64,000 bases of DNA from an uncultured Verrucomicrobiae bacterium (GCA_963842445.1 CAWJHF010000016.1:8067-72066), one strand, 5' to 3'; numbered from the stretch's first letter, positions 6,627 through 51,179 are shown. The notes: generated from the letters alone by a model not told the origin. A program made the numbers and translations.

Positions 6627-6669
6627 GCGTCCATTTTCCCATTGTGCGCGCAAGCTCATCAAAGATTGC

Positions 6670-30489: not shown

Positions 30490-30562
30490 AATCAAATTGA
30501 CATCGGAGCCAGCGCTGATTACAATGACTCGCCCAAAGTGGGTGGAACATCAACGAAACCGT

Positions 30563-35633: not shown

Positions 35634-35678
35634 CTCGTCGTTGGGGTTTTGGGGGACGAGTTGGCCTCGGAGGGCGCG
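35634..35678 (-). pseudogene. short remnant resembling the C-terminal tail of an R-M specificity/MTase subunit
   Basis: The reverse strand encodes RALRGQLVPQNPNDE, the common ..F.G.LVPQDPNDEP tail motif. It is embedded in an otherwise non-coding-looking ORF (35406-35861). Confidence 0.35.
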
Positions 35679-35829
35679 GGCGAGGCTTGTCGCGCCAAAG
35701 TGACGCGGCGGCGGAAGCAACAGCGTGACGGCGTCCGGCCGCCTTCGCCATGCTTCGGCCGGCCGGGTCTGCCGCTGCGCCGATGTCAGCCGCGCTTCAA
35801 TCGGGTCGGCCAGCGCAAACAAGACGCCA

Positions 35830-36327
35830 TCAGCGGTTTCGGTCTTTAATGTCATCTTCATAGGGCACGTTGTTCGCCTCGGCCCAGCTGATCACGAACG
35901 CCTTCATGGCCTTGTCACGGTATCCGAACCATTGGTCCTGAATCCCCAGCCGGTAAAGCGCGTCCTTGAAATGGTGGGAAGCAGCGTGGCCCTTGGTCGC
36001 ACGCCAAAGCTCTTCCGCGACTTTCGCGTCGGGCAATGCCCGGATGAATCGCTCCATGTGACGATATTCGTTAAACTCAAACTTGCCCGGCGGGTCAATG
36101 AAGCGGTCGCCGCTGTGGTTCACAATCGCCCGCGCCGTTTCGACTTCTTCCTTCTGCCAGTCAGGCATGCTCCTCAACGCCTCCTCCTCGCCCTCTTCCA
36201 CGGCACTCAGGATACGGTCCGCCACGCTGACGATCCGGCCGGTATGCCGGTCAAAATAAGCGCGCCGGTCCACAGACTCGAACTCGAGCGCGTCCGTCAA
36301 CTCGCTCAGTTTGGCGGGTGGGTTCAT
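35830..36327 (-). CDS. UPF0158-family protein
   Basis: YFDRHTGRIVSV... and the C-terminal GHAASHHFKDALYRLGIQDQWFGYRDKAMKAFVISWAEANNV resemble the UPF0158 pattern (G.GAFRRFKD....W..). Confidence 0.5.
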   Translation of the reverse strand: MNPPAKLSELTDALEFESVDRRAYFDRHTGRIVSVADRILSAVEEGEEEALRSMPDWQKEEVETARAIVNHSGDRFIDPPGKFEFNEYRHMERFIRALPDAKVAEELWRATKGHAASHHFKDALYRLGIQDQWFGYRDKAMKAFVISWAEANNVPYEDDIKDRNR

Positions 36328-36701
36328 ACAGTGACTCTAGTCCCGCCAGGGACGACACGCAATCGCCCGCGGTCTCAACCGTGGGGTTGGGATGTAAAAC
36401 AAACAAAACTCCCTGGGGCGACAGAGAGCGTAGGAGAGCAAGAGCGTTTTCTTTCGTCCCTGCGGGACTCGGGTAACTGGCCCCTTTCGGGACATTCCCC
36501 CGGGCAGGCGATTTATGCCGATTTATCTTGCCCTGCCCGGTTTCCGGCGTAAGGTGTAACTGCAAACGGAGCATAGTTTACCAGGTGTCCGACTGCCCTT
36601 CGTATTGGCATTCACTCCCCTCTTATTCCCTGCGCTGCAAAGCCGGAGCCGCAATCGCGGCTCAAACCAAACAAAAAGCAGTTCCAGAAAGAACAAAAAG
36701 T

Positions 36702-36941
36702 ATGATTACAAACACAAAACAAACAGCGCCTCCCACTTCCAAAGAGCGGGGTGCCGTGAAATCAACGCAAGTTGCGACTGGCCGCGGTTTTTTGCTCAAT
36801 CCATCAAAGTTGCAAAGCGCAGCCCCATCTCAGGCGATGATCGCGGAAGAAGCCTACGAGATTTGGGTCGCGCGAGGACAGGCACCGGGCCATGACCAGG
36901 AGCATTGGTACGAAGCCGAACGGCGGTTGCGGCACGGGTAA
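36702..36941 (+). CDS. DUF2934-family small protein
   Basis: C-terminal IAEEAYEIWVARGQAPGHDQEHWYEAERRL is the DUF2934 signature. Start at ATG 36702. Confidence 0.7.
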   Translation: MITNTKQTAPPTSKERGAVKSTQVATGRGFLLNPSKLQSAAPSQAMIAEEAYEIWVARGQAPGHDQEHWYEAERRLRHG

Positions 36942-37055
36942 GCGGCCCGTCAATTGGGCAACCAAAGGGAGCGGAAGGCGGCAGTTTACCGCCTCCGTTC
37001 GCTTCCTTGGCCGGCTGGTCAATCCGGCAGATGCCGGGTGTCCGTGAGCGCGTTT

Positions 37056-37090
37056 TCATAATTCTCCTTTGAGGACGCGGTCGAGTTTCC
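37056..37090 (-). pseudogene. hsdS 3'-tail remnant (..LDRVLKGEL*)
   Basis: tcataattctcctttgaggacgcggtcgag is near-identical to the tail copy at 41517-41545 (ttacaattctcctttgaaggcgcggtcgag). Confidence 0.5.
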
Positions 37091-37157
37091 CGCTACGGGT
37101 GCGGTGGGATTTGATTACGATTAACAGACAAACCAACAACGAAACGAAAAACAAACT

Positions 37158-37331
37158 ATGGCACTGAACATCAATCCGATCGGAGACCGGATTCTGGTTG
37201 AGCCGGTCGAAGAGAAGGAAGGCGCCAAGGTTGGTGGCAGCCGCCAAAGACCTTTGCGTCGCAGCGTCAAAAAGGCAGGGTCGCATTGCCGGGACGACCG
37301 AATAACGGACGGTTCGGCGAGCCGTCCCTAA
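37158..37331 (+). pseudogene. decayed groES-like fragment
   Basis: MALNINPIGDRILVEPVEEKEGAKVGG matches the GroES N-terminus. After residue ~27 the frame degenerates. AAKD and QKGRVALPGRP-like pieces appear in other frames, and the 57-aa ORF ends early. Confidence 0.35.
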
Positions 37332-37565
37332 CACTATGTACATACTGAAGCTCATCTGCCTGACAATCATCCAAGTGGTCAAACAGGCTTGGTTGCTTCC
37401 CCAATCTGTCGTGAATGCCGTCCACCAAAGGCAGCGGCGGATCGTTTTGAACGAACAGGAAGCCGAACGGCTCGACCGGATACGCAACCCGTCAAAGTAT
37501 CTTGGGAGGTGATCTGGACCCATGACCGGGAACGGCCAAAAAATCTGCCAAGATAATAAATCATC

Positions 37566-37892
37566 ATGAACACCAAGTTATACGTGGACAATCTGGCTGC
37601 TACCACTACCTACAGCGATCTTGTGGATCTGTTTGCCGTCCACGGCAACGTCGCCGAGGTCAGGCTCCCGGTTGATCCCGCCAATGGCCGGCCGCGCGGT
37701 TTCGGCTTTGTCACCATGGTCACGCCTGAAGGCGCCCGGGCGGCCGCTCGGGCTCTTCATGGAAAGGAGATAGGAACGCACAATCTAATCGTAAGCGAGG
37801 CGTGGTTGCATGAAGAGCGTGACGGTTCGTCCCGTGAAGGCCGCAGCCCCGCCGCCGTTCCACTTGCACCTACCAAGTCCAAAGCTAGATGA
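37566..37892 (+). CDS. RRM-domain RNA-binding protein
   Basis: RNP2 KLYVDNL and RNP1 RGFGFVTM. Confidence 0.85.
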   Translation: MNTKLYVDNLAATTTYSDLVDLFAVHGNVAEVRLPVDPANGRPRGFGFVTMVTPEGARAAARALHGKEIGTHNLIVSEAWLHEERDGSSREGRSPAAVPLAPTKSKAR

Positions 37893-37972
37893 GAAATTTG
37901 GCATGATCAACATTGCCTAGAACCCATCCTGAGCGCGTCAATGTTTTGCCGCGCCTAAATGAAAGAACCTCT

Positions 37973-38182
37973 ATGCGACGCCCCAAAGGTGTTAAAACCA
38001 GAAAGTCAGTGTCCAAACGTTTCAAGATAACGGCTACCGGCAAAATCCTGTATCGAGGAGCAGGCCGGCGCCATTTGCTTCAAGGCAAGAGTCCAAAACG
38101 GCGGCGATCATTGAGGAGGGCGGCGCTCATCGGACCCACGGACGTTTATCGCATCAAACAAAATTTGCCATTCAGCCACTAA
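37973..38182 (+). CDS. rpmI: ribosomal protein L35-like (stand-alone, not next to infC/rplT)
   Basis: MRRPKGVKTRKSVSKRFKITATGKILYRGAGRRHLLQGKSPKRRRSLRR... follows the L35 pattern (K.....KRFK.T..GK..R..AG..H.L..K...R.R.LR). Confidence 0.75.
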   Translation: MRRPKGVKTRKSVSKRFKITATGKILYRGAGRRHLLQGKSPKRRRSLRRAALIGPTDVYRIKQNLPFSH

Positions 38183-38312
38183 ACCACCCGCTGCCTTCTG
38201 CAACCCAAAATCCAAGCGAAAGACAAAACGTCCATGAAACTGCCGAGTGTCACCGCCCGCTTGAAACCTGCCTGCGGCGGGGGCCAAGACAACGGCAGAT
38301 CCCCTCAAATTG

Positions 38313-39896
38313 TCATCCTCCAGCACCAACTGTCCACGTTGACAGTTGATTGCCAACCGTTCCGGGTGGGGATGGCGGCGGATGGGCGACCGGCTTCTCC
38401 ATCTCGGGTATCCGTTCCGTGCGGGACACCAATGAAGCGTAGCGGCCAAGCTTCTCTTCGTAGCAACGGTGGTAAAATTCGGGGAGGGAAACGGAACCCC
38501 CTTCGTGGAACGACCTGAACGCACGATCCGTCTTAAGTTCCTGCTGCAACCGGCGAAAGGTGGCCAGGTCCTGACGCAGGCTGAACGTCCGCAGCGCGTG
38601 CAACAGACTGAATCCGATGGTTGACTTCGTCACCAGCCGCCGCGTCAACATCCGCGTGGACGTCATTGCGGAGTAAATCTCGATGAGCTTGTCGTAATAT
38701 TCGACCGGAGGATAGTTCGGCATCGTCGTTACGAGGTAAGGCGTGTAGTAAAAACTGAAAGGCATCGGCTTCAAAATGCTGCCTTTGGCGAGCGCCCGGT
38801 CGTAGAGCGGAGTGTTGCCAAAGGGAGTCGGAATGTTAACCGTGGGCCAGACGTAAGGGAGCGAACGGATGAATTCCTTGGTCAGCTCAACCGGTTCGTC
38901 GCCGTAATCAACCTCGGAGCCGAACATGAAATTGGCTTGCAACCCCGGGACATATTCCCGCAGCACGCGAAAATGTTCCACGACGTGCTTCAACTTCTCC
39001 TTGGGGGCCATCGCACCAACCCCGGCCTTGTTGGAATAGCTGGTCCATGCCTCGATCCCCGGCGCGATGTAAAGGCAATTTGTCTCCTTCAAACGCTGCA
39101 ACCGGGACCCGCGCAGGATCGAAAGAGAACTCTCCATGATGTAGGGATTACGGGCTTTTTCAGGAACCTTCTCGATGATGCCCAGGACCTGATCAAACTT
39201 CACTCCGAAGTTGGGATCGTGGTAAGTGACCTTGACGCCGGGCAGTTTTTTGGAAATGTAGCGTAAATCGGCTTCGAGCCCTTCCAGCGGGAGCACCGCA
39301 TACGGGCTGTTCCAATCCACGCAGAAGTCGCAACTGTAAGGACAGCCCACACTGCTTAACAAGGGCACCGAACCGACGCCCCGCGCTCGGCCCCGGGTGA
39401 ACACGGCTTTGACAATTTCCGGCATCCGCTCCTCGATGCTGGGGATTTCCTTCAAAGGCCGTCCGCTGCTGATGATGGAGTGGCGGTCGAAGCTGCCGCG
39501 CAGAATGTCGTTTATCAACGTCTTGTCGCAGTCTTTAACGACGAGGTCGAAAAACCGGAGACAATCGGTAGGGAAGGACTTGGCGTGCGGTCCACCGATG
39601 ACCGTCAGGGTTTTTTCGGTGCGATAAAGCTTGGCCAGGGCGTAGGCCAGCGCGCTGGCCTGGGTGTAGGTTGAAATGAAGACCACGTCCAGGTCGTCTG
39701 GCAGCAATCTTTTCGGATCTTGATGTCCGTAAAACGTGGCGTAGAACGTCTGATGACCGAGTTGGCGGCACCAGACGGCCACCACCTGTGGGGTGATGCT
39801 GCAATAATACCTCTTGAAATGGGCGCCATAGGCCGACTCAACCCGGTTCCGGGACTCTGATTCCACGAGCAATTCGAGGATGCCGACTCTCAGCAT
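38313..39896 (-). CDS. B12-binding-domain-like radical SAM protein
   Basis: CX3CX2C cluster motif GCPYSCDFC preceded by a Rossmann-like N-terminal domain (DVVFISTYTQ..TVIGGPHA). Confidence 0.8.
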   Translation of the reverse strand: MLRVGILELLVESESRNRVESAYGAHFKRYYCSITPQVVAVWCRQLGHQTFYATFYGHQDPKRLLPDDLDVVFISTYTQASALAYALAKLYRTEKTLTVIGGPHAKSFPTDCLRFFDLVVKDCDKTLINDILRGSFDRHSIISSGRPLKEIPSIEERMPEIVKAVFTRGRARGVGSVPLLSSVGCPYSCDFCVDWNSPYAVLPLEGLEADLRYISKKLPGVKVTYHDPNFGVKFDQVLGIIEKVPEKARNPYIMESSLSILRGSRLQRLKETNCLYIAPGIEAWTSYSNKAGVGAMAPKEKLKHVVEHFRVLREYVPGLQANFMFGSEVDYGDEPVELTKEFIRSLPYVWPTVNIPTPFGNTPLYDRALAKGSILKPMPFSFYYTPYLVTTMPNYPPVEYYDKLIEIYSAMTSTRMLTRRLVTKSTIGFSLLHALRTFSLRQDLATFRRLQQELKTDRAFRSFHEGGSVSLPEFYHRCYEEKLGRYASLVSRTERIPEMEKPVAHPPPSPPGTVGNQLSTWTVGAGG

Positions 39897-40159
39897 GGTA
39901 GTGGGTTCACGGCGTTGCGGAGTTGGTCTGCGCCGCCGAATTTGCCGATGATTTCCGCCACGTTGCCGTGTTGTGAAATCGGCGGGACTTTCAGTGCGTC
40001 GGGCAGCGTGACTTGGAATTCGCCGTCGAAGGCCGGGGACAGGTGGAATTTCTCGTTGGACCGAAAATCCGTCACAAGCTCTTTAGCCTTTGCAAAGACC
40101 GCATCAAACCCGGCTGGCATGGTGGGAGTGAGTGTGCGCCGAAGATTTATCAGCGTCAA
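39890..40159 (-). pseudogene. hsdR C-terminal (EcoEI_R_C-like) tail remnant 1
   Basis: DGEFQVTLPDALKVPPISQHGNVAEIIGKFGGADQLRNAVN parallels the intact HsdR end DGELQFTLPDVLKVPPISFHGNVNEIVGKFGGTDQLRNAVN. DNA homology spans 39905-40030. Its stop overlaps the radical SAM ATG. Confidence 0.75.
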
Positions 40160-40219
40160 TGCTCTTCAGGATGAGCCGTCCACGGGGTGTTTACCCCATA
40201 GACGGAATGAGGCACCAAG

Positions 40220-40609
40220 TCAGCTTTCGGTCACGTCATTGCACACAGGTTGCCAGCGGAGAATGAGATCCCGTTCCTCCGTGCATCGGGCCCCCTGACC
40301 GGCGGTAGAATAATGGACATGGACATGCGTAGCGCCATTCGCAATGGCGTTATCCAGCGTCACGTGACCCTCAAGTCGCTGGTGCAGATCTCGAGTTTGA
40401 GCAATGTAGATGGGAATCCAACTACCGTCCTCGGATTGTTTGGCATAAATGTAATTGCCTGGCAGCGGCCTGAAAGCAGTGTTAATGGGATGAATCTCGT
40501 ATTGATACTCGTTGCCGGACTGCCCGAGCCAACGGATGGATAGGGACTGCGTGCTCTGCGGCTGCAGGTGACGACCGAATAAACGTTTTAGCAAGTTCAC
40601 CTTGTTCAA
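40220..40609 (-). CDS. small GIY-YIG-like protein (non-ATG start)
   Basis: YQYEIHPINTAFRPLPGNYIYAKQ....WIPIYIAQTRDLHQRLEGH....AIANGATHVHVH fits a small GIY-YIG-like family pattern I recall. Only TTG or GTG starts are available. Confidence 0.45.
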   Translation of the reverse strand: MNKVNLLKRLFGRHLQPQSTQSLSIRWLGQSGNEYQYEIHPINTAFRPLPGNYIYAKQSEDGSWIPIYIAQTRDLHQRLEGHVTLDNAIANGATHVHVHYSTAGQGARCTEERDLILRWQPVCNDVTES

Positions 40610-40721
40610 ATCAGTCCATTAAATGAGCACTCTGTCAAGCGCTGAATCTCGTCGTTGTCAGACTGGTTAGTCAGTCCCCGTGGACACTACGAGGGGAATG
40701 CCGTTCGAGCAGGGCGCGGCA

Positions 40722-40773
40722 GGCACGGTCGCCTGTCGCGGCGAAGCCTGGCGAAAGCCGGAAGGATGGCGGG
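40722..40773. repeat. REP-like element type 2, copy 1
   Basis: ggcacggtcgcctgtcgcggcgaagcctggcgaaagccggaaggatggcgg aligns with 42766-42815. Confidence 0.45.
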
Positions 40774-40842
40774 GAGCAAGGCGTCCAACCCGGCGGCGGT
40801 CTCGGTTTGCAGGCGCTTCAGTCCGTCAACCTCCGCCACCAT
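40766..40842 (-). pseudogene. hsdS 3'-tail remnant (EVDGLKRLQTETAAGLDALLPAIL..), with the distal end replaced by REP type 2
   Basis: The reverse strand reads MVAEVDGLKRLQTETAAGLDALLPAIL. The intact HsdS end is EVDALTRLQAETAAKLDALLPAILDRAFRGEL. Confidence 0.6.
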
Positions 40843-40921
40843 TTGGCTCTCCCGCGTTCCATTTCAGTATGGCCTCGCTCCATCTGATGCAACGGCAAAT
40901 AATGTGGCTTCGACCACACCT

Positions 40922-41476
40922 TCACGGCGCGGGTTCCGCCAGCAATTTTTTGATGACCGGCTCGACGTACTCCGGCTGCAGACCGATGACGCGGACAATT
41001 CGTTTGCGGTCAATGATGGCGTAAGTGGGATAGTAATGCACGGCCCAGGCTTTCTCGGATTTCAATTCGGGATCGCGGGCGGCCGGATATTGGATGTGAT
41101 GTTCCTGGGCGTTGGCCGCAAATTGTTCCTGACCATCACTGGACGTGCAGACCCCGATGATGACCAGTCCCTGATCCTTGTATTTTTTCAGGAGTTCGTT
41201 GTTATGGGGAATGGCCCTCATGCAGGGGCCACACCAGGTGGCGTAAAAATCCACAACAACGACTTTGCCCTTGATGTCGTTGGCGGTTATGCCGCCATTA
41301 ATCCAATCGCTGACGTGAAAGGCGGGGAAGGGCTTGCCTTCCAGGGCGGCGTGGGCAGCGCGGTACTCAGGCTTGTCGTCCCAAGTCCAAGTGTCGGGAA
41401 ATTCGCCCGCCCGAGCGGCCTGTCCGCCCAAAACGAGTGAACCCAGTGCAATGAGCAACAATTTCTTGGTGGTCAC
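40922..41476 (-). CDS. secreted TlpA/redoxin-family thiol-disulfide oxidoreductase
   Basis: A WCGPC active site in VVVDFYATWCGPCMRAIP. The GTG start at 41476 gives the signal peptide (M)TTKKLLLIALGSLVLGGQAARA. Confidence 0.85.
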   Translation of the reverse strand: MTTKKLLLIALGSLVLGGQAARAGEFPDTWTWDDKPEYRAAHAALEGKPFPAFHVSDWINGGITANDIKGKVVVVDFYATWCGPCMRAIPHNNELLKKYKDQGLVIIGVCTSSDGQEQFAANAQEHHIQYPAARDPELKSEKAWAVHYYPTYAIIDRKRIVRVIGLQPEYVEPVIKKLLAEPAP

Positions 41477-41516
41477 ATAATCAGAGTTATCACAAATCGC
41501 GATGGCTGACAATAGA

Positions 41517-41603
41517 TTACAATTCTCCTTTGAAGGCGCGGTCGAGCATGGCGGGGAGCAAGGCGTCCAGTTCGACGGCGGTCTCGGCTTGCAGGTAGTT
41601 CAT
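41517..41603 (-). pseudogene. hsdS 3'-tail remnant preserved as a 28-aa mini-ORF
   Basis: MNYLQAETAVELDALLPAMLDRAFKGEL*. It starts 5 nt after the stop of the upstream lipoprotein gene and ends 4 nt before the tracked TTG start of the redoxin ORF. Confidence 0.65.
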
Positions 41604-41608
41604 GGATT

Positions 41609-42721
41609 TCACTGTTCCTGCCGTTTCAGTTCAATCTCGACCATTTCGCAGTTGTCATCGAAGCCGGCATTCTGCAGACCCGGTGTGAAGGTGAGATTCA
41701 TCACCCGGCCATTCTCCCGAAACAGTTCCGGATGCAAGTAGGCACAATACACCAGCTCCACACGTTTCCCCTGACGATATTCGGGCACTTCGATGCGCGC
41801 GAGCGGCGGACTCCAAGGGCCATAAGGCGTATCCGCAACATGGAACCGAATCTCCCGCGGGTGATCGAAGTCGCTCGACGAAGCCATGACATACTTTGCC
41901 AGATACGGATTCCAAGCAACGGAGACTTGACCGGGGACGTTTTTGACCAGAAACGTTGCGGCCGCTTGCCGAGACGAGAATTTCGGACCAGCACCCGTGT
42001 AGAACTCGTAGGCATCGGGGTCCTCGATTTTCTCCGGGCGCACCCGGGCCAGAGCGACGCCCTGCTTCCCTTTGTTTTCCTTGATCTCGTATAGATAAAT
42101 CCACCCGTCCGCCTCAAGAACTTGAGCCGCTCCAACTGGAAAACGCCAATCCCCGTGCGGACGAAGCCGCTCGTATGGGCCGAGCGCAACCTTTGCCCGG
42201 CCGAGGCCGGAACCGACGCCGCGAAAATCCCATTGTCCCTTCCCAAAAATCTCCATCAGCGTATAAAAAAGGTAGTATTGACCGTTCACGTGGATTCCGC
42301 CCAGCGCCCAAATTCCATGGCGCTTCGCAGTTTCGTCCGGGAAATACGCAAATGGCGAGACGGCATCACCATTGCTGGACACGAGATAAGTGAAGGCCGG
42401 CGGATAACTTCTGGCATTCTCCCCAAGAAAGGCGATGGAGCAGGATACGGCTCCTCCGGCGAAGTGCGGAGTCCCATCAGCGAACCGCGAGCCTTTGAAG
42501 GTGTCGCCGAAAACCCAGATCGCCCCGCCCGGGACCGCGAATGACTGTCCGCCATCCTGGGAAACAACTGAAGCCCGGGCGTGCGACTCGTTCCAAAGCG
42601 AGCCGAGGAAATTGGTTTGGACAATCTCAAAAGTCCCGCCCGCCTGCTTTTCCGTCGGCATGGAGGTGGAACATCCCGCAACGATGACTATCAGACCAAG
42701 TGCGATGAAAAGTTGTTTCAT
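41609..42721 (-). CDS. lipoprotein, DUF4185-like / glycoside-hydrolase-like beta-propeller
   Basis: Lipobox MKQLFIALGLIVIVAGC (ATG 42721). The motifs IWVFGDTF and GGIHVNGQYYLFY resemble DUF4185. Confidence 0.5.
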   Translation of the reverse strand: MKQLFIALGLIVIVAGCSTSMPTEKQAGGTFEIVQTNFLGSLWNESHARASVVSQDGGQSFAVPGGAIWVFGDTFKGSRFADGTPHFAGGAVSCSIAFLGENARSYPPAFTYLVSSNGDAVSPFAYFPDETAKRHGIWALGGIHVNGQYYLFYTLMEIFGKGQWDFRGVGSGLGRAKVALGPYERLRPHGDWRFPVGAAQVLEADGWIYLYEIKENKGKQGVALARVRPEKIEDPDAYEFYTGAGPKFSSRQAAATFLVKNVPGQVSVAWNPYLAKYVMASSSDFDHPREIRFHVADTPYGPWSPPLARIEVPEYRQGKRVELVYCAYLHPELFRENGRVMNLTFTPGLQNAGFDDNCEMVEIELKRQEQ

Positions 42722-42765
42722 AATTCCCCTTCTTGTCGCGCCGAAATCGGATGAAGGCGGATGAA

Positions 42766-42815
42766 GGCGCGGTCGCCTGTCCCGTCGTAGCCAAGCGAAG
42801 ATGGAAGAATGGCGG
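42766..42815. repeat. REP-like element type 2, copy 2
   Basis: ggcgcggtcgcctgtcccgtcgtagccaagcgaagatggaagaatggcgg, in the hsdS-lipoprotein spacer. Confidence 0.45.
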
Positions 42816-42878
42816 ATTTCCTCTCCGCCTCGAACGGGGAGAGGATGAAAGGTGAGGTGTCGAATTGACTGGCGGTAA

Positions 42879-44075
42879 TCATAATTCACCTCGAAATGCC
42901 CGATCCAAAATCGCTGGCAGCAAGGCGTCCAGTTTGGCGGCGGTTTCGGCTTGCAGGCGCGTCAGCGCGTCCACCTCCGCCTGCAACGCGTCCAGCTCGG
43001 CCACGATCCGGCGCTGCTCGGCGAGCGGAGGCGTTGGAATTTCCAAATCACGAATATCGCCAAGTGAAATGTTTGGGCGTGCCGTTTCAACTTTTCCACC
43101 GTGAATTGTATCTTGCGCAATTGGGCTAAGAAGAAAGTGAACGAGGAAATCTGGCACCAACTTTTCTTTGTCCGGGCTAATCACGCCGACGGCTTGGTTG
43201 ACGTTTGCATCGCCCAAATCTCCGGGCACAGCGCACGCTCGTCCGATAGACGCGCCGACGAGATTTATCAGAACGTCATCTTTACGCAATTGGCAGCGCG
43301 ACAATTTTTCATGGAAGCCTTGCGGGATGTGAATAGCGTTGCGCGGGTCAAGGCTGCCCCACAGGACATTTTCGCTTCGGATGAAAAGCGGACCTGTATC
43401 TTGGTAAGTGAATCCTTGCCATTCTGGTGATTCGCCCTTCGTGACGCGACTCGACAAATCTTCAAGCCGTGAAGCGCCAAAATCCTTCGCAGCAGAAATA
43501 AAGAATGTGTTGCGTCCGGCGCTACGAAGCGCCTCGGCTTCTTCGGCGGCTTGGTGGCGGAGGGTGCGGGCCTCGTGGATTTGGGCGGCCAGGGCCTCAA
43601 TCCGCGCCACCACCCGCCGCTGCTCCGCCAACGGCGGCAACGGAATTTCGCAAGCGAGAAAAATTTTCGGCCTGACAGCGGCATAGCCAGTCGTGCCTTT
43701 CGCCTCCGCGTCCAACTGCTCTTGTAGAAAGTTCGCGTCGAAGATGGCTTTGAGCCAACGCCGATCAAGCTTGTCCTCACGAATATCGAACAGGAAGAAG
43801 TGGTTTGTGCAAAGTGCGCCTTCACCTTCCGGCGGAACGAAACCAATCGCGCCTTTCTTGCCCCAGATTTCGGACAGGATAACTTGCCCGGCTTTTGCAA
43901 GCTGATGGCGTTTCATCTTGAGCATCGCGCCGTCCGTTGGAGCATCAAGCACAACTCCTTTGCCGTAGAGTTTTACCGAGAGCTTCCGGTATTCTCGCGG
44001 TTCAGGTGCTTCGATGTAATCGGTGTAGTGCGTGAGCACTTCGCCCAACTTCACGGTTGGCCATTGCTTGCTCAT
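42879..44075 (-). CDS. hsdS: type I restriction-modification specificity subunit
   Basis: Two target-recognition halves, each followed by a conserved helix (LPPLAEQRRVVARIEAL... and PPLAEQRRIVAELDAL...). The ATG at 44075 overlaps the hsdM stop (ATGA). Confidence 0.9.
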   Translation of the reverse strand: MSKQWPTVKLGEVLTHYTDYIEAPEPREYRKLSVKLYGKGVVLDAPTDGAMLKMKRHQLAKAGQVILSEIWGKKGAIGFVPPEGEGALCTNHFFLFDIREDKLDRRWLKAIFDANFLQEQLDAEAKGTTGYAAVRPKIFLACEIPLPPLAEQRRVVARIEALAAQIHEARTLRHQAAEEAEALRSAGRNTFFISAAKDFGASRLEDLSSRVTKGESPEWQGFTYQDTGPLFIRSENVLWGSLDPRNAIHIPQGFHEKLSRCQLRKDDVLINLVGASIGRACAVPGDLGDANVNQAVGVISPDKEKLVPDFLVHFLLSPIAQDTIHGGKVETARPNISLGDIRDLEIPTPPLAEQRRIVAELDALQAEVDALTRLQAETAAKLDALLPAILDRAFRGEL

Positions 44076-45652
44076 GCCTGCTTTGCCAAAAGTTTCTGGA
44101 TGTTGCCCATGATTTCCGCGATGCGCTGCTCTTTCTTCAGGATTTCGGCGGCGAGTTGCGCGGGCGGCAGGTGCGTGATGTCTTCCTTGGCGCGCGGGTT
44201 CTTGCGGTCGAGATTGCATCCGTTCGCCAGCAACTCGGCGGCGGGCACCACCCAGGCCCGGTCACTTTCCTTTCGGTTATTCCACCATTGGATGCAATCG
44301 GCGAATTCCTCAAACTGGATGGGTGCGGTTTTGGTGTAATTCTTCCGGCCTTCGGGCAGCGGTTGTTCGTAATACCAGACTTCGCGCGTCGGGCCGGAGC
44401 GGTCGAAGAACAGCAGGTTCGTCGGGATGCTGGTGTAGGGCGCAAACACGCCGTTCGGCAGCCGGACGATGGTGTGCAGGTTAAATTCTTTCAGCAATTC
44501 CTCCTTGATGCGGGCGCAAACGCCATCGCCGAACAACGTGCCATTGGGAACGACCACGGCGGCCCTTGCATAGGTAGGGACGCTGCGCTGCGGCGTCCGG
44601 TCATCGCAGCGCGATGACCCTACCTTTTTCAGCTTCCGCATGATTAACTGGAGGAACAGCAGCGCCGTTTCCGCCGTTTGTTTGTCTTCGGGGAAATTGC
44701 CTTGGATGCCTTTCTCCTCCTCGCCGCCGAAAGGCGGGTTGGTGAGGATCACGTCCACGCGGTCGCGCTCGCCGATGTCCGTCAGCTTGAAGCGGAGCGA
44801 ATTGCCGGGATCAATCTGCGGCGCGTCGAGGCCGTGCAACAACAGGTTCATCTGGCAGAGCAGATACGGCAGCGTCTTGGGTTCGCAGCCAAAAAGAGAT
44901 TTTTCCTGCAAGACCTTGCGGTCAGCCACCGTCTTAACTTGTTTTGACAAGTGATTAAACGCTTCAACGAGGAAGCCGCCTGTGCCGCACGCCGGATCGA
45001 GCACGGTCTCGCCTAAGCGCGGGTCGGTGACGGCGACCATGAGGCGCACGACGGCGCGTGGGGTGTAAAACTCGCCGGAATCGCCCGCCGCATCGCGCAT
45101 CTCGCGGAGCATGGATTCGTAGAGCGCACCCAGCGTCTGCAGCTCGCTGCTGGAGGTGAAATGAATGCCGGCAAGCTTATTGATGACATCGCGCAACAGG
45201 TAGCCGCTGACCATGCGGTTCTGCACTCCCTTGAACACGGTGGCAATCACGTCCCGCCGATCGTCGCCATTGGAACTGGTGAGCGTGCGCAGGTAACGGA
45301 ACAGGCCTGCGCCACGCTTGCCGTCCGGGCGCGTGGTCTCCTCGTTGTTGATGAAGGCGAGCAATTCGTCGCCGGTGATGCCGTCGGACTTGGCGGCCCA
45401 ATCGCGCCAGCGATAGGGCGGTTCGATGGCCGGCTTGAACTTTTTGGCGGCGAGCTTGGCCTCGCCCTCGCGCTGAATTTCCAGGTCGTCCAGAAATTTC
45501 AGGAACATGATCCATGTGAGCATCGGCAACCGGTCAAGGTCGCCATTCAGCCCCTTGTCCTTTCTCATGATGTCGCGCGCAGATTTCAGGAGCGCCCCGA
45601 GTGATTGGGCGGTGGTAGGAGAAGCCGGAACGAGCTTAGGATTCGGCGCCAT
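44072..45652 (-). CDS. hsdM: type I restriction-modification N6-adenine DNA methyltransferase subunit, with an 18-aa in-frame palindromic-element insertion
   Basis: HsdM N-domain (LDRLPMLTWIMFLKFLDD), motif I DPACGTGGF and motif IV NPPFGG. The start is set at MAPNPK (ATG 45652). Confidence 0.9.
   Translation of the reverse strand: MAPNPKLVPASPTTAQSLGALLKSARDIMRKDKGLNGDLDRLPMLTWIMFLKFLDDLEIQREGEAKLAAKKFKPAIEPPYRWRDWAAKSDGITGDELLAFINNEETTRPDGKRGAGLFRYLRTLTSSNGDDRRDVIATVFKGVQNRMVSGYLLRDVINKLAGIHFTSSSELQTLGALYESMLREMRDAAGDSGEFYTPRAVVRLMVAVTDPRLGETVLDPACGTGGFLVEAFNHLSKQVKTVADRKVLQEKSLFGCEPKTLPYLLCQMNLLLHGLDAPQIDPGNSLRFKLTDIGERDRVDVILTNPPFGGEEEKGIQGNFPEDKQTAETALLFLQLIMRKLKKVGSSRCDDRTPQRSVPTYARAAVVVPNGTLFGDGVCARIKEELLKEFNLHTIVRLPNGVFAPYTSIPTNLLFFDRSGPTREVWYYEQPLPEGRKNYTKTAPIQFEEFADCIQWWNNRKESDRAWVVPAAELLANGCNLDRKNPRAKEDITHLPPAQLAAEILKKEQRIAEIMGNIQKLLAKQA
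44573..44624. repeat. REP-like structured palindromic element type 1, copy C (inside the hsdM coding sequence)
   Basis: ggtagggacgctgcgctgcggcgtccggtcatcgcagcgcgatgaccctacc belongs to the same family as 61174-61225 and 62499-62549. In hsdM it is translated as VGSSRCDDRTPQRSVPT. Confidence 0.8.
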
Positions 45653-45848
45653 GAGATTTGGTACGGTATGGAACCGGTGTTTCGCGCAACGCAGCGGCCT
45701 CCGTGACGGAAATCCACACGGCTTTGCCATCCCGCCAGACGGCCAGCGGACGGCCGCGCCGCTGATGGTCGGCAACGACTTTGGCCACGGCATCCGCCAG
45801 TGCCTGTATCGCCTTTTGTGTCAGAGAGGATTCGGTTCGTTTTTTCAT
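45636..45848 (-). CDS. small hypothetical protein (70 aa), possible partner of the zeta-like ATPase
   Basis: MKKRTESSLTQKAIQALADAVAKVVADHQRRGRPLAVWRDGKAVWI... Its ATG overlaps the ATPase stop (ATGA), and its 3' end overlaps the hsdM start by 17 nt. Confidence 0.45.
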   Translation of the reverse strand: MKKRTESSLTQKAIQALADAVAKVVADHQRRGRPLAVWRDGKAVWISVTEAAALRETPVPYRTKSHGAES

Positions 45849-46430
45849 GGTGCAAACCGCCGTCGCAATTGTTCGTAAAGCGCGGCATCGCCAATCGTAG
45901 TGTGGCCCGCTTCGTCTTTGAAGATTAAACGCGGCGTGTCGGACGAGTTGTCGAAGAAATGCAATGTGTCGAGCCACGGGCGGTAAAGCGTGAAAAGATT
46001 GCCCACCGTGCGGCCAAATCGCCGCCGGACATCGCGCTCCGGGACGTTGTGTCCGCCGCTCTCGACGCGATCGCGAATGCGCAGCAAGGCCAGGTCGGGA
46101 CTGGGAATCCACAGATAGAACATGTGCAGCCGGAAGCCGGCCTTTTTCGCGCCGCGCAGCAACGGCACATAGGAGCGACCCGACAAAAATGGTTTCAAAG
46201 GCGAAATCGGTTCGCGCTGCCGTGAATTCCGCGATGCGCTCCAGAACGGCGCGCCCGACGCGCAACATGCCCGCGTCTGGATCGAAGGGCGAATAGGCGC
46301 GGGCCAGCAAATCTGGATTGATGAAATTGCGGCAGTTGGCGTAGAGCGGCAGGAACTCCGTGGCAAACGTGGTTTTGCCTGCGCCGTTCGGGCCGGCGAT
46401 GACATAGCAGTTGGCAAACTTACGCGGCAT
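45845..46430 (-). pseudogene. zeta-toxin-like / COG4185-type P-loop ATPase, split by a +1 frameshift in a homopolymer
   Basis: Frame A carries MPRKFANCYVIAGPNGAGKTTF...TDFAFET. Frame B carries LSGRSYVPLL...GGHNVPERDVRRRF...FFDNS. The frames join if one base is removed from the A5 run at 46185-46189. Confidence 0.7.
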
Positions 46431-46506
46431 ACAGCAGCGTTTGCAGTTGGTTCACGGCGTTGCGGAGCTGGTCTGCGCCGCCGAATTTGCCGATGATTTC
46501 ATTCAC
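46420..46506 (-). pseudogene. hsdR 3'-tail remnant 2 (..VNEIIGKFGGADQLRNAVNQLQTLLYAA*)
   Basis: It begins directly after the Fic stop. Its terminal codons overlap the ATPase ATG. It contains the 50-nt conserved core. Confidence 0.7.
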
Positions 46507-46513
46507 GATTTGC

Positions 46514-47632
46514 TCATTTGATTTTAGCCTTTGGCTTTCGACCTTTGGCGGTTCCGTTATTACCCTCTTTATTACCCTCTTTCAAGGGTAATACCCTCTT
46601 TTGCCATTTCGCACCCGGGCCGCGGCCGAGACATTCGACGTGGCCGGCAGCCTTCAGGTCGCGCAACAAAAGACGAATCATGTCGCGGCTGACGCCGGGG
46701 CAGAGCCGCTCAAGGTCGGTGATGCCGAATTCGCCGGCAAGGTTTTCAATGGCGTGCTCGACCAGTTCGGTTTTCGCGCCGCGCGGCGATTTGAGCTGGC
46801 CGACGCGCTGCTCAAATTCCTTACAGGCTTGCGTGAGGATGAAGAGCAGGAAATTCATCGCCGGCCAAGGATCATGTTTGCTTTCGTGCCAGCGCTGGGA
46901 ACTCTGTTCCAGGACTTCGTAATACCGTTCCTTGTTTTCCTCGATGAGGCGTTCCAGGCTGATGTAGCGTCCGGCTTCAATGCCGCAGTGATAGCACGCC
47001 AGCAGAAAGAGCAGACGCGAGACGCGGCCATTACCATCGCGAAAGGGGTGGATGCAGAGAAAATCCAGATTCAACGCCGCCGTCAGGACGAGTGGATGAA
47101 CCCATCTTTCGCGCCAGCCACGCTCCCACAGTTCAACCATTTCCGCCATCGCCCGGGGTGTTTGTTTTGCCGGAACGGATTTGAAACGGACGCGGCTGCG
47201 GCCATCGGCATAGGTCTGGATAATGTCCACATCTTTTTCTTTGTAACGACCGGCGTCCCAGACCTGGCCTTGGCAGAGTTTGTGGAGCCGCTTGATGGTG
47301 GTTTCAGCGATTGGCAGTTTTGCGCCGGATTCGTGGATGAGTTTCAATGCGTCCCGATAACCGCGCACTTCCTCCTCGTCGCGGTCGCGCAAAGCGGGTT
47401 TACCGAAAATGAGCGTAGCGACGCGGGATTTGTCCACTTCCACGCCTTCGATGCGGTTTGATGAAATAGCGCTTTCAATCAAGGCGTGCTCGCGCAGCAC
47501 CTTGAGCTTTTGCGGTGACTGGCGGGTGAACAACTCTTGTTTTCCGCGCGCCTCGGCCAGGTCGGTCAAATACCACGTCGTCCGCGTCGGCAACGCGGCT
47601 GGTTCGGCGGCGAGTTGGCGGAGGGTCATCAT
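46514..47632 (-). CDS. Fic-family protein (AMPylase-type) with a C-terminal winged-helix-like domain
   Basis: Canonical Fic motif HPFRDGNGRVSR. N-terminal Fic-N-like helices. Confidence 0.9.
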   Translation of the reverse strand: MMTLRQLAAEPAALPTRTTWYLTDLAEARGKQELFTRQSPQKLKVLREHALIESAISSNRIEGVEVDKSRVATLIFGKPALRDRDEEEVRGYRDALKLIHESGAKLPIAETTIKRLHKLCQGQVWDAGRYKEKDVDIIQTYADGRSRVRFKSVPAKQTPRAMAEMVELWERGWRERWVHPLVLTAALNLDFLCIHPFRDGNGRVSRLLFLLACYHCGIEAGRYISLERLIEENKERYYEVLEQSSQRWHESKHDPWPAMNFLLFILTQACKEFEQRVGQLKSPRGAKTELVEHAIENLAGEFGITDLERLCPGVSRDMIRLLLRDLKAAGHVECLGRGPGAKWQKRVLPLKEGNKEGNNGTAKGRKPKAKIK

Positions 47633-47635
47633 GGG

Positions 47636-47743
47636 TCAAGCGGAATAGAGCAGCGATTGGAGTTGGTTGACGGCGTTGCGGAGCTGGTCCGTGCCGCCGA
47701 ATTTACCGATGATTTCGTTTACGTTACTGAGAGATCGCGTCAT
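47636..47743 (-). pseudogene. hsdR 3'-tail remnant 3, preserved as a 35-aa mini-ORF
   Basis: MTRSLSNVNEIIGKFGGTDQLRNAVNQLQSLLYSA*. Its ATG overlaps the cupin gene stop (ATGA), and its stop lies 3 nt before the Fic ATG. Confidence 0.7.
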
Positions 47744-48114
47744 TTGACAGGACTCCTGCTTTCTTCAACCGATGACGGCCACCGGACGGTGATGACAACC
47801 GCTTTGGTGAGAGCTTCCCACCTGTGTTCTCGTTTGTCCTCCCAGACGACGAAGTTTCCGGGAGACCGCAAAACAAAAGTATCGGTTTTCCTACTGGAAC
47901 GGATTTGCACGAGAAACTCTCCGGACAAAAGTAACGTAATGGTTTTCTTTCCAGGCTGCGATTTCCAATCGCCGGATTCACCAGTTTCATGCACACCCCA
48001 TTTGATTTCGATATCGTCAGTCGCTCTCAATGAACGTTTCTTCACAAAGTGGCCGACAATCCAACCACGTGTGGGCTGACCACAGACTACTGCGTTTCCA
48101 AACTCTGGGCGCAT
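47740..48114 (-). CDS. cupin-like small protein
   Basis: PTRGWIVGHFV...DIEIKWGVH..G......TLLLSGEF....VVWEDKREHRWEALTKAVVITVRWPS resembles small single-domain cupins I have seen. Weak. Confidence 0.4.
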   Translation of the reverse strand: MRPEFGNAVVCGQPTRGWIVGHFVKKRSLRATDDIEIKWGVHETGESGDWKSQPGKKTITLLLSGEFLVQIRSSRKTDTFVLRSPGNFVVWEDKREHRWEALTKAVVITVRWPSSVEESRSPVK

Positions 48115-48115
48115 A

Positions 48116-48340
48116 CTATCGTGGGTCCCTCTGTTTTATCGGCTGTGAAGTTGTTCTCGGATTCTCGTATCCTTGGCGTATTGTTTCCAACCATCTGTCG
48201 CCTCCTCGGAGGCTTCGCCCGCCGGACGAAACAAAGAAGTCGATCCCTCCCAGAAACGATTTGTTTAGCTGCTGTTGCAACCAGAGCGCAATCGGAGCTT
48301 CCTCATGCACATGCGAAATAAACACCAAGGGCTTACTCAT
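48116..48340 (-). CDS. TIR-like domain N-terminal fragment (74 aa)
   Basis: KPLVFISHVHEEAPIALWLQQQLNKSFLGGIDFFVSS...GGDRWLETIRQ looks like the first strand, helix and strand of bacterial TIR domains. The ORF ends before the region where the catalytic Glu would lie. Confidence 0.4.
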   Translation of the reverse strand: MSKPLVFISHVHEEAPIALWLQQQLNKSFLGGIDFFVSSGGRSLRGGDRWLETIRQGYENPRTTSQPIKQRDPR

Positions 48341-48346
48341 ATCATA

Positions 48347-50725
48347 TCAGGTTGCATACAGCAGCATTTGAAGTTTGTTCACGGCGTTGCGGAGCTGGTC
48401 CGTGCCGCCGAATTTGCCGACGATTTCGTTGACGTTGCCGTGGAATGAAATCGGCGGGACTTTCAGCACATCGGGCAGGGTGAATTGGAGTTCGCCGTCG
48501 GTGGCGTATTTCTCCAGCAGGTCTTTCAGGATTTCCTGGGCTTCCAAGCTGAAGTAGCCGAAGAAAGCCGATTGCTGTCTCTTAAAGCGGTCGGCGCGCT
48601 GGCGGCGGGTGACCACGGGCGCGTTGAAGGCGAGGTGGCACAGCAGGTCGAATGGGTCGGCGTCCGGTTTGCCCACCTGCGCGGCGACTTGCTGGAAATC
48701 AATCCCGCGCTCGGCAAGCTGCTGGATGATGTCGGCGCGCTGGCCGGCGTCGGCCCAGCGGGCGCGCAAATCCTCCGGGCTGGCGCAGAGCGTCCGCACC
48801 TTCTCGGCGGTGTAGTCGGTGAGCTTGACGACGCGGAGTTGTTTGCCGTCGGAATCAAGCTCGTGGACCAGTTCGGCGGCAATTTCGACCTGTCCGCCGT
48901 CGAAGTAGTACTTTCGGCGTTCGGACGGTGGACCGTCCACGATGACGGGCGGTTGGACTTCTTCCTGAAGCTTGCCGTCGTCATCCTCGGTTTCCTCCGG
49001 CGTGATGACTTCGGTTTCTTTCACCTTGCCGTATTCGTCAATTTCCTCCTGCGTGGCGAACGCCGGATCACCGTCGAAGGTTGGGTCGGCGAAGTTGCGC
49101 GTGGCCGTGCCGGTGTAGTCGAGGATGTTGAACCAGAGCTTGCCGTAGTCGTCGCGCACGCGCGTGCCGCGCCCGATGATTTGCTTGAACTCGACCATCG
49201 AGTTGACAAGGCGCACGAGCACGACGTTGCGGCAGGTGGGCGCGTCGAGGCCGGTGGTGAGCAGTTGCGAGGTGGTCAGGATGACGGGCGTGCGCGTCTC
49301 CACGTCCTGAAACCGCTGCATGTGGCCGCGCCCGATGTCGCCTTCGTCGGCGGTGACGCGGCAGACGTAATCGGGGAATTGCTGGACGAGGTCGGTGTTC
49401 AGATTGTTGAGCGCGGTGCGCATCTCGGATGCGTGTTCCTGGTCCACGCAAAAGACGATGGTCTTGGCGAAGCGGTCGTTTTTTTTGAGGAAGTCGGTCA
49501 AGTGTTTCGCGATGATCTCCGTGCGCTTCAGTAACGCCACTTTTCGCTCGAAATCTGCCGTGGTGTATTCCCCGTCAGGGATGCGGCGACCGTAACGGTC
49601 GAGGTCGTCTTTGCTCGGGCGCCAGCCGGCAGCATCCCATTGTGTGATGATGCGGTGGACGCGATATGGCGCGAGGAAACCGTCGTCAATGCCCTGTTTG
49701 AGGCTGTAGGTGTAAATCGGGTTGCCGAAGTAGAGATAGGTGTCCTTGTTGTCCTGGCGCAACGGCGTGGCGGTCATGCCGAGTTGATAGGCGGGCTCAA
49801 AGTATTCGAGGATTTCGCGCCAGTTGGAATCTTCCTTGGCGCTACCGCGGTGGCACTCGTCCACGATGATGAGGTCGAAGAAGTCAGGCGCGAATTCTTT
49901 GTAAAGACCGGGACGACGTTCGTCCTTGGCGATGGATTGATAGGTGGCGAAATACATCTCACGGCTGAACACGGCGTTACCGCCCTCAATCTTGTGCCGG
50001 GCGTCCCCGAATGGTGCGAAGATTTTGTCCTTGGGGTCGTCCACGAGAAAGTTGCGGTCGGCGAGATACAGAATGCGTGGTTTTCTTTGGGGCTCGTTCT
50101 TCCGATTCCATTTCGAGGACCAAAGTTTCCAGCAAATTTGAAAGGCGACATCCGTCTTGCCCGTGCCGGTAGCCATCGTCAGCAACACCCGCTTCCTGCC
50201 TTGCAGAATGGCTTGCACGGCGCGGTCAATCGCGATGCACTGATAATAACGCGGTTCCCTCCCGGTAGTCAGATTGGCCGAAGTCAGCAGGCGTTGTGCG
50301 GCGGTGTCGTCCGTAAGTTTTTCCCCTGCACGAAGCCGTGACCAGAGTTCGGCCGGCGCCGGAAAGCTTCCAATCACCCGTTCTTTGCCGGTGAGGAAAT
50401 CAAACTCGACGATACCCTGGCCGTTGGTGGCATAGGCGAATTTCAGGCCGAGGATTTGGGCGTATTCCTTGGCCTGTTGCAAGCCATCCGCTGCTTTCTT
50501 GTATTGCGCCTTGGCTTCGACTACTGCCAAGGTGAAGTCGCGCGTATAGCGCAACAGGAAATCGGCGCGTTTGCCTTTGCGGCGTTCGGCCCGACTGCCA
50601 CGAACCACGATGCGTCCGGCGGTGAAATAGCGTTGCTCGGCGATGGAATGCGGGTCGTTGTCCCACCCGGCAGCTTGAAGCTTCGGCACAACGAATTTGC
50701 GGCATGTATCGGCTTCGGTTGACAT
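48347..50725 (-). CDS. hsdR: type I restriction enzyme R subunit (EcoAI/EcoEI-like, with an EcoEI_R_C-type tail)
   Basis: N-terminal nuclease region (ADFLL...VVEAK), helicase motifs MATGTGKT and DECHR, and the C-terminal tail LKVPPISFHGNVNEIVGKFGGTDQLRNAVNKLQMLLY. Confidence 0.92.
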   Translation of the reverse strand: MSTEADTCRKFVVPKLQAAGWDNDPHSIAEQRYFTAGRIVVRGSRAERRKGKRADFLLRYTRDFTLAVVEAKAQYKKAADGLQQAKEYAQILGLKFAYATNGQGIVEFDFLTGKERVIGSFPAPAELWSRLRAGEKLTDDTAAQRLLTSANLTTGREPRYYQCIAIDRAVQAILQGRKRVLLTMATGTGKTDVAFQICWKLWSSKWNRKNEPQRKPRILYLADRNFLVDDPKDKIFAPFGDARHKIEGGNAVFSREMYFATYQSIAKDERRPGLYKEFAPDFFDLIIVDECHRGSAKEDSNWREILEYFEPAYQLGMTATPLRQDNKDTYLYFGNPIYTYSLKQGIDDGFLAPYRVHRIITQWDAAGWRPSKDDLDRYGRRIPDGEYTTADFERKVALLKRTEIIAKHLTDFLKKNDRFAKTIVFCVDQEHASEMRTALNNLNTDLVQQFPDYVCRVTADEGDIGRGHMQRFQDVETRTPVILTTSQLLTTGLDAPTCRNVVLVRLVNSMVEFKQIIGRGTRVRDDYGKLWFNILDYTGTATRNFADPTFDGDPAFATQEEIDEYGKVKETEVITPEETEDDDGKLQEEVQPPVIVDGPPSERRKYYFDGGQVEIAAELVHELDSDGKQLRVVKLTDYTAEKVRTLCASPEDLRARWADAGQRADIIQQLAERGIDFQQVAAQVGKPDADPFDLLCHLAFNAPVVTRRQRADRFKRQQSAFFGYFSLEAQEILKDLLEKYATDGELQFTLPDVLKVPPISFHGNVNEIVGKFGGTDQLRNAVNKLQMLLYAT

Positions 50726-51091: not shown

Positions 51092-51179
51092 GCCGGTGTG
51101 GCGAAATGGCAGACGCACAGGACTTAAAATCCTGGGACCATAAAAAGTCGTGTGAGTTCGAGTCTCACCACCGGCACCA
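51092..51179 (+). tRNA. tRNA-Leu (anticodon UAA), class II with long variable arm, CCA encoded
   Basis: Hand fold: acceptor GCCGGTG/CACCGGC, D arm GCG/CGC, anticodon stem CAGGA/TCCTG with loop CTTAAAA, 17-nt variable arm, T arm GTGAG-TTCGAGT-CTCAC, discriminator A, then CCA. Confidence 0.9.

Follow-up and report, generated by a model that had tools for sequence, protein, structure and literature searches.

Why should the end of one gene recur, always in the same orientation, between a series of different genes? This question is raised by a DNA stretch of 64,000 nucleotides (nt) from an uncultured Verrucomicrobiae bacterium (GCA_963842445.1, CAWJHF010000016.1:8067-72066), referred to here as the window, which includes a Type I restriction-modification (R-M) operon and comes from a draft assembly of 25 contigs and 3.77 Mb. 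An earlier note made from the sequence alone had listed five tails of the specificity-subunit gene hsdS within positions 35,634 to 44,075, and had taken them to mean that several independent Type I loci were collapsed there. Our analysis indicates that the tails are probably 3' stubs of earlier or foreign hsdS and hsdR alleles, left by repeated recombination within one highly mobile Type I R-M family.

The locus encodes the components of a Type I R-M system in one operon, with an HsdR nuclease/helicase core, an HsdM N6-adenine methylase and an HsdS, as identified by Pfam and NCBIfam. The HsdS has central and C-terminal conserved regions that flank two target recognition domains (TRDs), and its internal duplication is evident from the matches of a tail profile to residues 209-250 and 411-460 of the hsdS reading frame. 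The intact HsdS ends in EVDALTRLQAETAAKLDALLPAILDRAFRGEL before its stop codon. The five hsdS-type tails all translate as the earlier note had stated, on the minus strand, and are above the level expected by chance in tblastn, jackhmmer and shuffling analyses, with the motif at 35634 being weak when taken alone. Besides the end of the intact gene (tail A), they are named here stubs B, C and D and remnant E (Table 1). A tblastn comparison of HsdS with the whole 3.77-Mb genome detected B (E=1.5e-6) and C (E=4e-4) and gave no matches beyond this locus, and the jackhmmer tail profile matched them with E-values of 1.9e-12 and 1.2e-7, respectively. Stub B is the 28-codon mini open reading frame (ORF) that had been noticed between the lipoprotein and redoxin genes. 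The near identity reported for the DNA of the copies at 37056 and 41517 was also found: D matches B at 24 of the 26 nt of a core sequence, which, allowing up to three mismatches, occurs in the window solely at B and D (0 expected in 100 shuffles). Stub D is 87-93% identical to the hsdS ends of loci L003, L004 and L006 and to a short remnant in L002 that resembles a tail. Because of its small length, the 35634 motif gives no significant E-value (E=0.03-10). At least 21 of its 25 best plasmid matches are within genes annotated as restriction endonuclease subunit S, and for this reason E is probably a remnant of a different HsdS family; the residues upstream of the motif in the same frame look like the end of an HsdS of that other family.

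A sixth hsdS-type tail, absent from the earlier list, is the stub named A2. Its ATG overlaps the hsdS stop codon and its TGA overlaps the ATG of the DUF4185 lipoprotein gene, forming ATGA overlaps at both ends, and its translation reads AIL-PSSLGYDGTG-DRAF-IRLHPISARQE-GEL before the stop. The 3' end of hsdR is repeated as well, three more times (47636-47725, R1; 46420-46509, R2; 39891-40028, R3). Identity to the resident hsdR end is 89% over 81 nt for R1, 90% for R2 and 84% over 139 nt for R3; R2 reaches 96% with the hsdR ends of L002 and L007, and R3 was detected by tblastn as a match to HsdR residues 728-785 (E=3e-15). All copies are in direct orientation, the minus strand carries all hsd genes and stubs, and fragments from the 5' part or the interior of hsd genes were not found in the window. 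The stubs are tightly joined to the next gene: A2 and D end in ATGA overlaps, R1 stops 3 nt before the ATG of a Fic-domain gene, the end of R2 overlaps the start of an ATPase gene, and the ATG of a radical-SAM gene is inside R3. With six hsdS-type and three hsdR stubs in approximately 15 kb, the stacking is unusually dense.

The origin of the stubs was addressed by comparing the window with 80 related loci, whose HsdM proteins show 70-91% amino acid identity to that of the window. This HsdM family is spread, at 70-91% identity, over Verrucomicrobiota, Proteobacteria, Acidobacteriota, Nitrospirota, Planctomycetota and others, which suggests that it moves widely. Stubs B and C are only 79% and 82% identical to the resident tail, as against 92% to the hsdS end of L004 (B) and 93% to L007 (C), and 94% and 95%, respectively, to stub 1 of the congener G043; the difference at the DNA level between the intact hsdS and the tails, already pointed out in the note, is thus borne out. 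The last 40 nt of the resident hsdS are of the RAFRGEL type, like those of L008 and L011, whereas B, C and D are of the RAFKGEL type that is common in Verrucomicrobiota. Alignment with the hsdS genes of related genomes identified the tails as true hsdS 3' ends, and not as a low-complexity coil shared by different proteins. The stub sequence is colinear with the hsdS coding sequence, and 35 of the 65 differences between stubs and resident end are at third codon positions (p=5e-4), an excess in keeping with divergence at a time when they still encoded protein within functional genes.

The hsdR stubs lead to the same conclusion. Over 1194 nt, R1 and the Fic gene that follows it share 94.2% identity with the intact hsdR end and Fic gene of G043, while the window hsdR is only 85.2% identical to that of G043; the Fic protein itself shows 97% amino acid identity to the one encoded directly after hsdR in that congener. 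The contrast between these two values argues that R1 is what remains of a G043-type hsdR that was once directly before Fic, and G043 can be considered a putative, near-identical "before" state for R1 and Fic. In L008 an intact hsdR directly precedes the zeta-toxin-like ATPase module that follows R2 in the window, and in L005 a homologous module is found after an hsdR stub. A Fic homolog in L060 is upstream of hsdR and is uninformative in this regard. These identities show the likely source of the stubs to be other alleles, and not the resident gene ends.

Self-comparison of the 80 loci and the window yielded 11 downstream same-strand copies of hsd 3' ends, in five loci, versus one copy of a 5' end; weaker stubs were seen in L001, L002, L052 and L077. 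The copies are polar, i.e., they are 3' ends located downstream on the same strand. A same-strand ORF begins between -8 and +20 nt of the hsdS stop codon in 41 of 65 loci, indicating that a tightly attached passenger gene is the normal state. In L004 a new hsdS is followed, after 276 nt and with no cargo between, by an old tail, and hsdR has the same arrangement, which points to replacement rather than insertion. The first 22 codons of hsdR, 100% identical to those of the window, run straight into the C-terminal part of hsdS in G041 (L179, G041:C164, 655-998), and are found about 670 nt upstream of an hsdS tail stub in G058 (L184, G058:C2, 5616-6560); this arrangement shows both to be apparent collapsed Type I operons. 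Stub-gene arrays similar to that of the window exist in the congeners G043, G041 and G021. In G043, hsdS is followed by a 340-amino acid passenger ORF, whose start overlaps the hsdS stop, and then by three more stub-then-gene modules, and G021 has kept hsdR and a stub-redoxin-stub arrangement but has lost hsdM and most of hsdS. Fragments of hsdM were also observed: L080 has a 37-nt copy of the hsdM 3' end, 97% identical, before cargo and hsdS (8078-8114, 10005-10041), and L004 has a 49-nt copy of the hsdM 5' end before a 120-amino acid ORF (6580-6628, 7064-7112).

The genes between hsdR and hsdM are of defense or toxin-antitoxin type (a TIR fragment, Fic and a P-loop ATPase), whereas those behind hsdS encode a DUF4185 lipoprotein and a ResA/TlpA-like secreted redoxin. 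The note had judged the latter two not obviously defensive. Both occur in many genomes of the genus away from any hsd gene, in agreement with that judgment, and are ordinary, non-defense genes of the genus. Their association with hsdS ends elsewhere is partial. The block formed by stub B, redoxin and stub C is 85.7% identical over 852 nt to L091; L092 includes stub B and the redoxin gene at 89%, with the C-type stub located elsewhere; and the stub-DUF4185 module recurs in L089, which probably represents the same genome as G048, and in G043:C27. On the other hand, DUF4185 is found without a preceding hsdS stub and away from hsd genes in L090 and L176, and the redoxin gene with the same 5' untranslated region but no stub in G043:C7, G058:C7 and G050:C1. 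The homology with L089 stops at the DUF4185 stop codon, and this, together with the homology with G043, identifies a stub and its following gene as the conserved unit. Erosion has left stub B with different lengths in three genomes, its 3' end remaining fixed. A predicted sigma-70-like promoter for the redoxin gene is found right after the stop codon of B, and this promoter and the 5' untranslated region are common to the stub-less loci; a scan for promoters and terminators did no better than shuffles. No synteny beyond the shared blocks was detected between the window and the redoxin loci of G043, G058 and G050 in a tblastx comparison, the output of which was noisy.

Some stubs share a feature that intact genes lack. 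A 30-nt insertion encoding xSSxG[FY]D[PG]TG gives approximately 18 matches in 11 of 163 genomes of the genus, with at least 14 copies in stubs, and every copy with a findable tail reading frame lies in a short stub-like ORF. It was not found outside stubs in the five genomes searched, nor in any of the 80 intact hsdS genes checked. The insertion-bearing stubs precede different genes, and the stub before the redoxin gene has the insertion in L092 but not in the orthologous stubs of the window and L091. Stub 2 of G043 matches the insertion-bearing part of A2 at 94% over 54 nt. Stub C carries a homologous insertion of 31 nt after its PAIL residues, followed by DRA codons that are out of frame, and is not replaced at this point by a repetitive extragenic palindromic (REP) element as had been proposed; a REP element was rejected as the source of the insertions in A2 and C, the 30-nt sequence being seen inside stubs only in the five genomes. 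Confinement of the insertion to stubs suggests that some of them descend from, recombined with, or were copied from other stubs, and the stubs are, on these data, presumably substrates as well as scars. The collapse of several independent Type I loci, as first proposed, finds support in the collapsed operons of congeners and in the foreign-allele tails, but it is too simple an account given the stub-only insertion and the presence of the stub-redoxin-stub block as one unit in a second genome (L091). A second insertion site, with TTVNNTGQAA and similar sequences between LQAET and AELDALL, was observed in stubs of congeners (L179, 1711-1884; L184, 5616-5825). The spacer from the hsdS stop to A2 includes a short element (42810-42867) with 88-96% matches in many genomes of the genus and in L090; unlike the stub-specific insertion, it is a true genus-wide repeat.

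The comparisons show the sharing of modules between genomes, the apparent collapse of operons in congeners, and what seems to be a lineage of stubs marked by the insertion. We infer the order of events, and joining by ordinary homologous or illegitimate recombination, as follows. Passenger genes of this Type I family usually have their start at the hsdS stop or shortly beyond it. Together with a passenger of its own, a new allele would enter from the upstream side, using the conserved hsdM or hsdR as one homology arm, and the second joint would fall in the conserved 3' end of the old gene or in an existing stub. The body of the old gene would be lost, and its last 10-40 codons would remain joined to the old passenger. 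Iteration of this process would stack stub-then-gene modules behind the operon, deletion could also collapse operons leaving the same kind of stub, and the stubs may then serve as short homology arms for module exchange or conversion.

Several observations weigh against this scheme. R1 and R2 start at the same codon, and three upstream joints are only 0-7 nt from the stop codon of the preceding cargo gene, tighter than expected of random illegitimate joints. The insertion, absent from the 80 intact hsdS genes, marks a stub lineage before different genes, so that some stubs are not independent relics, and such a lineage fits cassette-like copying as well as it fits recombination between stubs. 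In addition, the hsdS-A2 and DUF4185-B joints are unique to this draft assembly; at the latter, an examination for microhomology gave suggestive similarities and no clean joint. The tight upstream joints, the identical start of R1 and R2 and the stub-only insertion lineage keep in contention a dedicated cassette system, in which the stubs would be recombination sites comparable to attC or to tvr repeats and a recombinase encoded elsewhere would move circles consisting of a stub plus a gene. Such a system would also agree with the regular architecture, in which every stub abuts a gene, with the distribution of the insertion among 11 of the 163 genomes, with the stub-redoxin-stub block common to L091, and with the excision and reintegration at direct repeats that was shown experimentally for the pneumococcal hsdS locus (PMC6265443). 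We consider it unlikely, however: a search of the genome for PF00589 found no tyrosine recombinase in the window, the nearest being approximately 38 kb away, and the window has no integrase; the 5' boundaries of the stubs range from 9 to 138 codons; the length of B is not constant among genomes; and the stubs are closest to ordinary hsdS alleles. Insertion of each cargo gene with a long target duplication, which would make the stubs duplicates of the resident hsdS or hsdR end, appears improbable. Direct repeats of 26-140 nt do flank single genes with no mobility gene nearby, and this mode has been documented for all R-M types (PMC2853133), but the identity of the repeats to the resident end is 79-90%, lower than to alleles of other genomes, whereas those of the published cases are near-identical; moreover, the old tail in L004 has no insert before it, and the homology with L089 and G043 makes the conserved unit a stub and its downstream gene.

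The mini-ORFs could have been retained by selection as bridges for translational coupling, a role that is compatible with stubs being left by allele replacement but that is quite unlikely to account for them. A2, B, R1 and R2 are uninterrupted, each having a start codon and its native stop, A2 is in frame across its two insertions, and the tail end AAAGGAGAATTATGA (FKGEL and stop) includes a purine-rich AAGGAG, interpreted as Shine-Dalgarno-like, ahead of an ATG overlapping the stop codon. Nevertheless, C is frameshifted, the L092 stub is broken by an 85-nt insertion, and the stubs are eroded to differing lengths from one genome to another. That stubs are generally kept for Shine-Dalgarno coupling was rejected in the case of the redoxin gene, which has its own promoter, starts 40 nt downstream and is stub-less in other genomes; for A2 a coupling role is possible. 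Lastly, concatenation of strain variants of one locus through their shared tails during assembly would be in line with the 25-contig draft and with the two joints unique to it, but is highly improbable: independent assemblies show the same A2-DUF4185, B-redoxin and redoxin-C joints, in one case on a contig of 384 kb, similar arrays are present in several other genomes, and the repeats are short and only 80-90% identical. Stubs left by replacement of alleles therefore remain our preferred explanation. A broader proposal, possible but doubtful, is that hsd 3' ends constitute a recombinase-independent, integron-like platform, the stubs being portable arms that stack and move any adjacent gene between genomes and phyla; the cargo of such a platform might include housekeeping-type genes (redoxin, lipoprotein), and the stub-only insertion lineage might be the trace of stubs propagating as stubs.

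The order of the locus on the minus strand, from 5' to 3', is hsdR, TIR fragment, 124-amino acid ORF, R1, Fic, R2, zeta-like ATPase, hsdM and hsdS, followed by A2, DUF4185, B, redoxin, C, 129-amino acid ORF, R3, radical-SAM, L35 and RRM (on the other strand), D, UPF0158 and E. The coordinates of the features are shown in Table 1.

Table 1. Genes, stubs and remnants at the Type I R-M locus of the window (aa, amino acids).
Feature	Coordinates	Strand	Remarks
tRNA-Leu(TAA)	51092..51179	+	366 nt upstream of hsdR start; ARAGORN, Rfam
hsdR, intact	48347..50725	-	792 aa; Pfam ResIII, Helicase_C, EcoEI_R_C
TIR-like fragment	48116..48340	-	74 aa; begins 6 nt past hsdR stop; Pfam TIR_2 E=1.1e-5, below curated cut-off
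124-aa ORF	47740..48114	-	No family match in Pfam or NCBIfam
R1, hsdR 3' stub	47636..47743	-	35-codon mini-ORF; ATG overlaps stop of preceding ORF
Fic-domain gene	46514..47632	-	372 aa; Pfam Fic
R2, hsdR 3' stub	46420..46509	-	28-codon mini-ORF
P-loop (zeta-toxin-like) ATPase ORF	45636..46430	-	Weak AAA matches
hsdM	44072..45793	-	Pfam N6_Mtase, HsdM_N
hsdS, intact	42879..44075	-	398 aa; NCBIfam type I specificity subunit; conserved C-terminal tail A, 42879-42981
Stub A2	42718..42882	-	54-codon mini-ORF; tail-derived part ~42718-42815; two in-frame insertions
DUF4185 lipoprotein gene	41609..42721	-	370 aa; Pfam DUF4185 and lipobox
Stub B	41517..41603	-	28 codons and stop; MNYLQAETAVELDALLPAMLDRAFKGEL
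Redoxin (secreted thiol-disulfide oxidoreductase)	40922..41512	-	Likely start GTG ~41476; Pfam AhpC-TSA, Redoxin; NCBIfam ResA/TlpA-like
Stub C	40721..40842	-	Tail codons 40762-40842, (MVA)EVDGLKRLQTETAAGLDALLPAIL; then 31-nt stub-specific insertion and out-of-frame DRA codons
129-aa ORF	40220..40609	-	No family match in Pfam or NCBIfam
R3, hsdR C-terminal fragment	39890..40159	-	~64 homologous codons; last codons replaced by radical-SAM gene start
B12-binding radical SAM gene	38313..39896	-	Pfam
Stub D	37056..37090	-	KLDRVLKGEL and stop
Remnant E	35634..35830	-	C-terminal part of other-family HsdS; motif ARALRGQLVPQNPNDE at 35634-35678

The tRNA was the sole match in an Rfam scan of the window. 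A repeat of approximately 55 nt, 92% identical, is found at 29221-29272 and 51024-51075 on the same strand, 21.7 kb apart; one copy is just upstream of the tRNA-Leu gene and the pair brackets the whole island region; the repeat may mark an island boundary or represent a tRNA promoter region that was displaced. Between R3 and stub D, on the plus strand (37566-38182), are an RRM-domain gene and a gene for a ribosomal protein L35 that stands alone, and a 1012-amino acid ORF (30497-33535) consists of about 12 tandem units of 141-150 nt. Within the hsdM reading frame there is a self-complementary element of 54 nt (44572-44625), corresponding to HsdM residues ~383-418, that has short matches at many loci genome-wide and would fit a dispersed repeat translated in frame. 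The alignment of the zeta-like ATPase with its homologs of L005 and L008 is split between different frames, with overlapping pieces at residues 1-84 and 76-264, which suggests a putative frameshift in one copy.

The stubs can be considered readable scars, in which whole hsd genes would have been replaced from the upstream side and the old end kept with its neighbor, with repetition producing polar arrays that would later recombine at stubs. They provide a practical marker for the history of defense loci and for fossil R-M loci that lack an enzyme gene, and they call for caution, as genes inside or behind Type I operons are not necessarily defense genes. If stubs are indeed active recombination arms, genes could move by a simple route that dispenses with an integrase. 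What this window contributes is the dense stacking, the non-defense cargo, the near-identical "before" state in a congener and the stub-only insertion marker.

Embedded genes are frequent in Type I R-M systems (Payne et al. 2024, bioRxiv 10.1101/2024.01.29.577857). The TIR fragment, Fic and zeta-like ATPase genes nested between hsdR and hsdM resemble such embedded genes, as known from PrrC and "guilt-by-embedding", while the genes behind hsdS differ from them in being ordinary genes for secreted proteins. The text of that study mentions neither hsdS nor truncation or recombination and does not describe stubs (10.1101/2024.01.29.577857), and no description of the route by which embedded genes enter Type I operons was found in the literature searched. 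Insertion with long target duplication was described by Nobusato et al. 2000, as cited (ref. 37) in Furuta, Abe & Kobayashi 2010 (PMC2853133). As in the cases presented there, long variable direct repeats linked to R-M genes flank DNA in the window with no transposase or integrase; the repeats exceed 30 bp in part (26-139 nt), and no mobility gene such as a tyrosine recombinase is in the window. The insert in those cases is an R-M system between near-identical target copies, whereas here the repeat is the end of an R-M gene, and the copies are 79-90% identical to the resident end as against 92-96% to other genomes and do not represent a single resident target. At the pneumococcal tvr locus (SpnIV), the excision and reintegration of hsdS segments is guided by direct repeats and passes through circular intermediates, and long repeats work, inefficiently, without a recombinase (Kwun et al. 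2018, PMC6265443). Unlike tvr, which shuffles TRD segments and encodes TvrR, the repeats of the window bracket DUF4185, redoxin and Fic genes, with no TRD segments between them and no recombinase in the window. Remnants or stubs of hsdS were met in the literature searched only in papers on phase variation by inverted repeats. The invertons and shufflons of phase-variable hsdS loci also have partial hsdS copies near an intact one (PMC7672463, PMC7394358), but they need inverted repeats and alternative TRDs, in silent copies, and usually a recombinase; all tail copies found here are direct, 9-40 codons long and devoid of TRD sequence.

An integron has an adjacent IntI-type tyrosine recombinase (PF00589), which is not found here; clusters of attC sites lacking integron-integrases (CALINs) are also without it but keep their attC sites, imperfect palindromes with R''/L''-L'/R' boxes. 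The closest conceptual parallel is that of the orphan arrays of Rhs and contact-dependent inhibition (CDI) systems. In these, recombination within the conserved part of the gene brings in a new 3' module, the old module is displaced downstream together with a short conserved piece, and repetition builds a polar array of displaced units that consist of alternative C-terminal toxin tips and immunity genes. At the locus described here it would instead be the whole gene body that is replaced, and the displaced unit would consist of the end of a gene and an unrelated neighbor.

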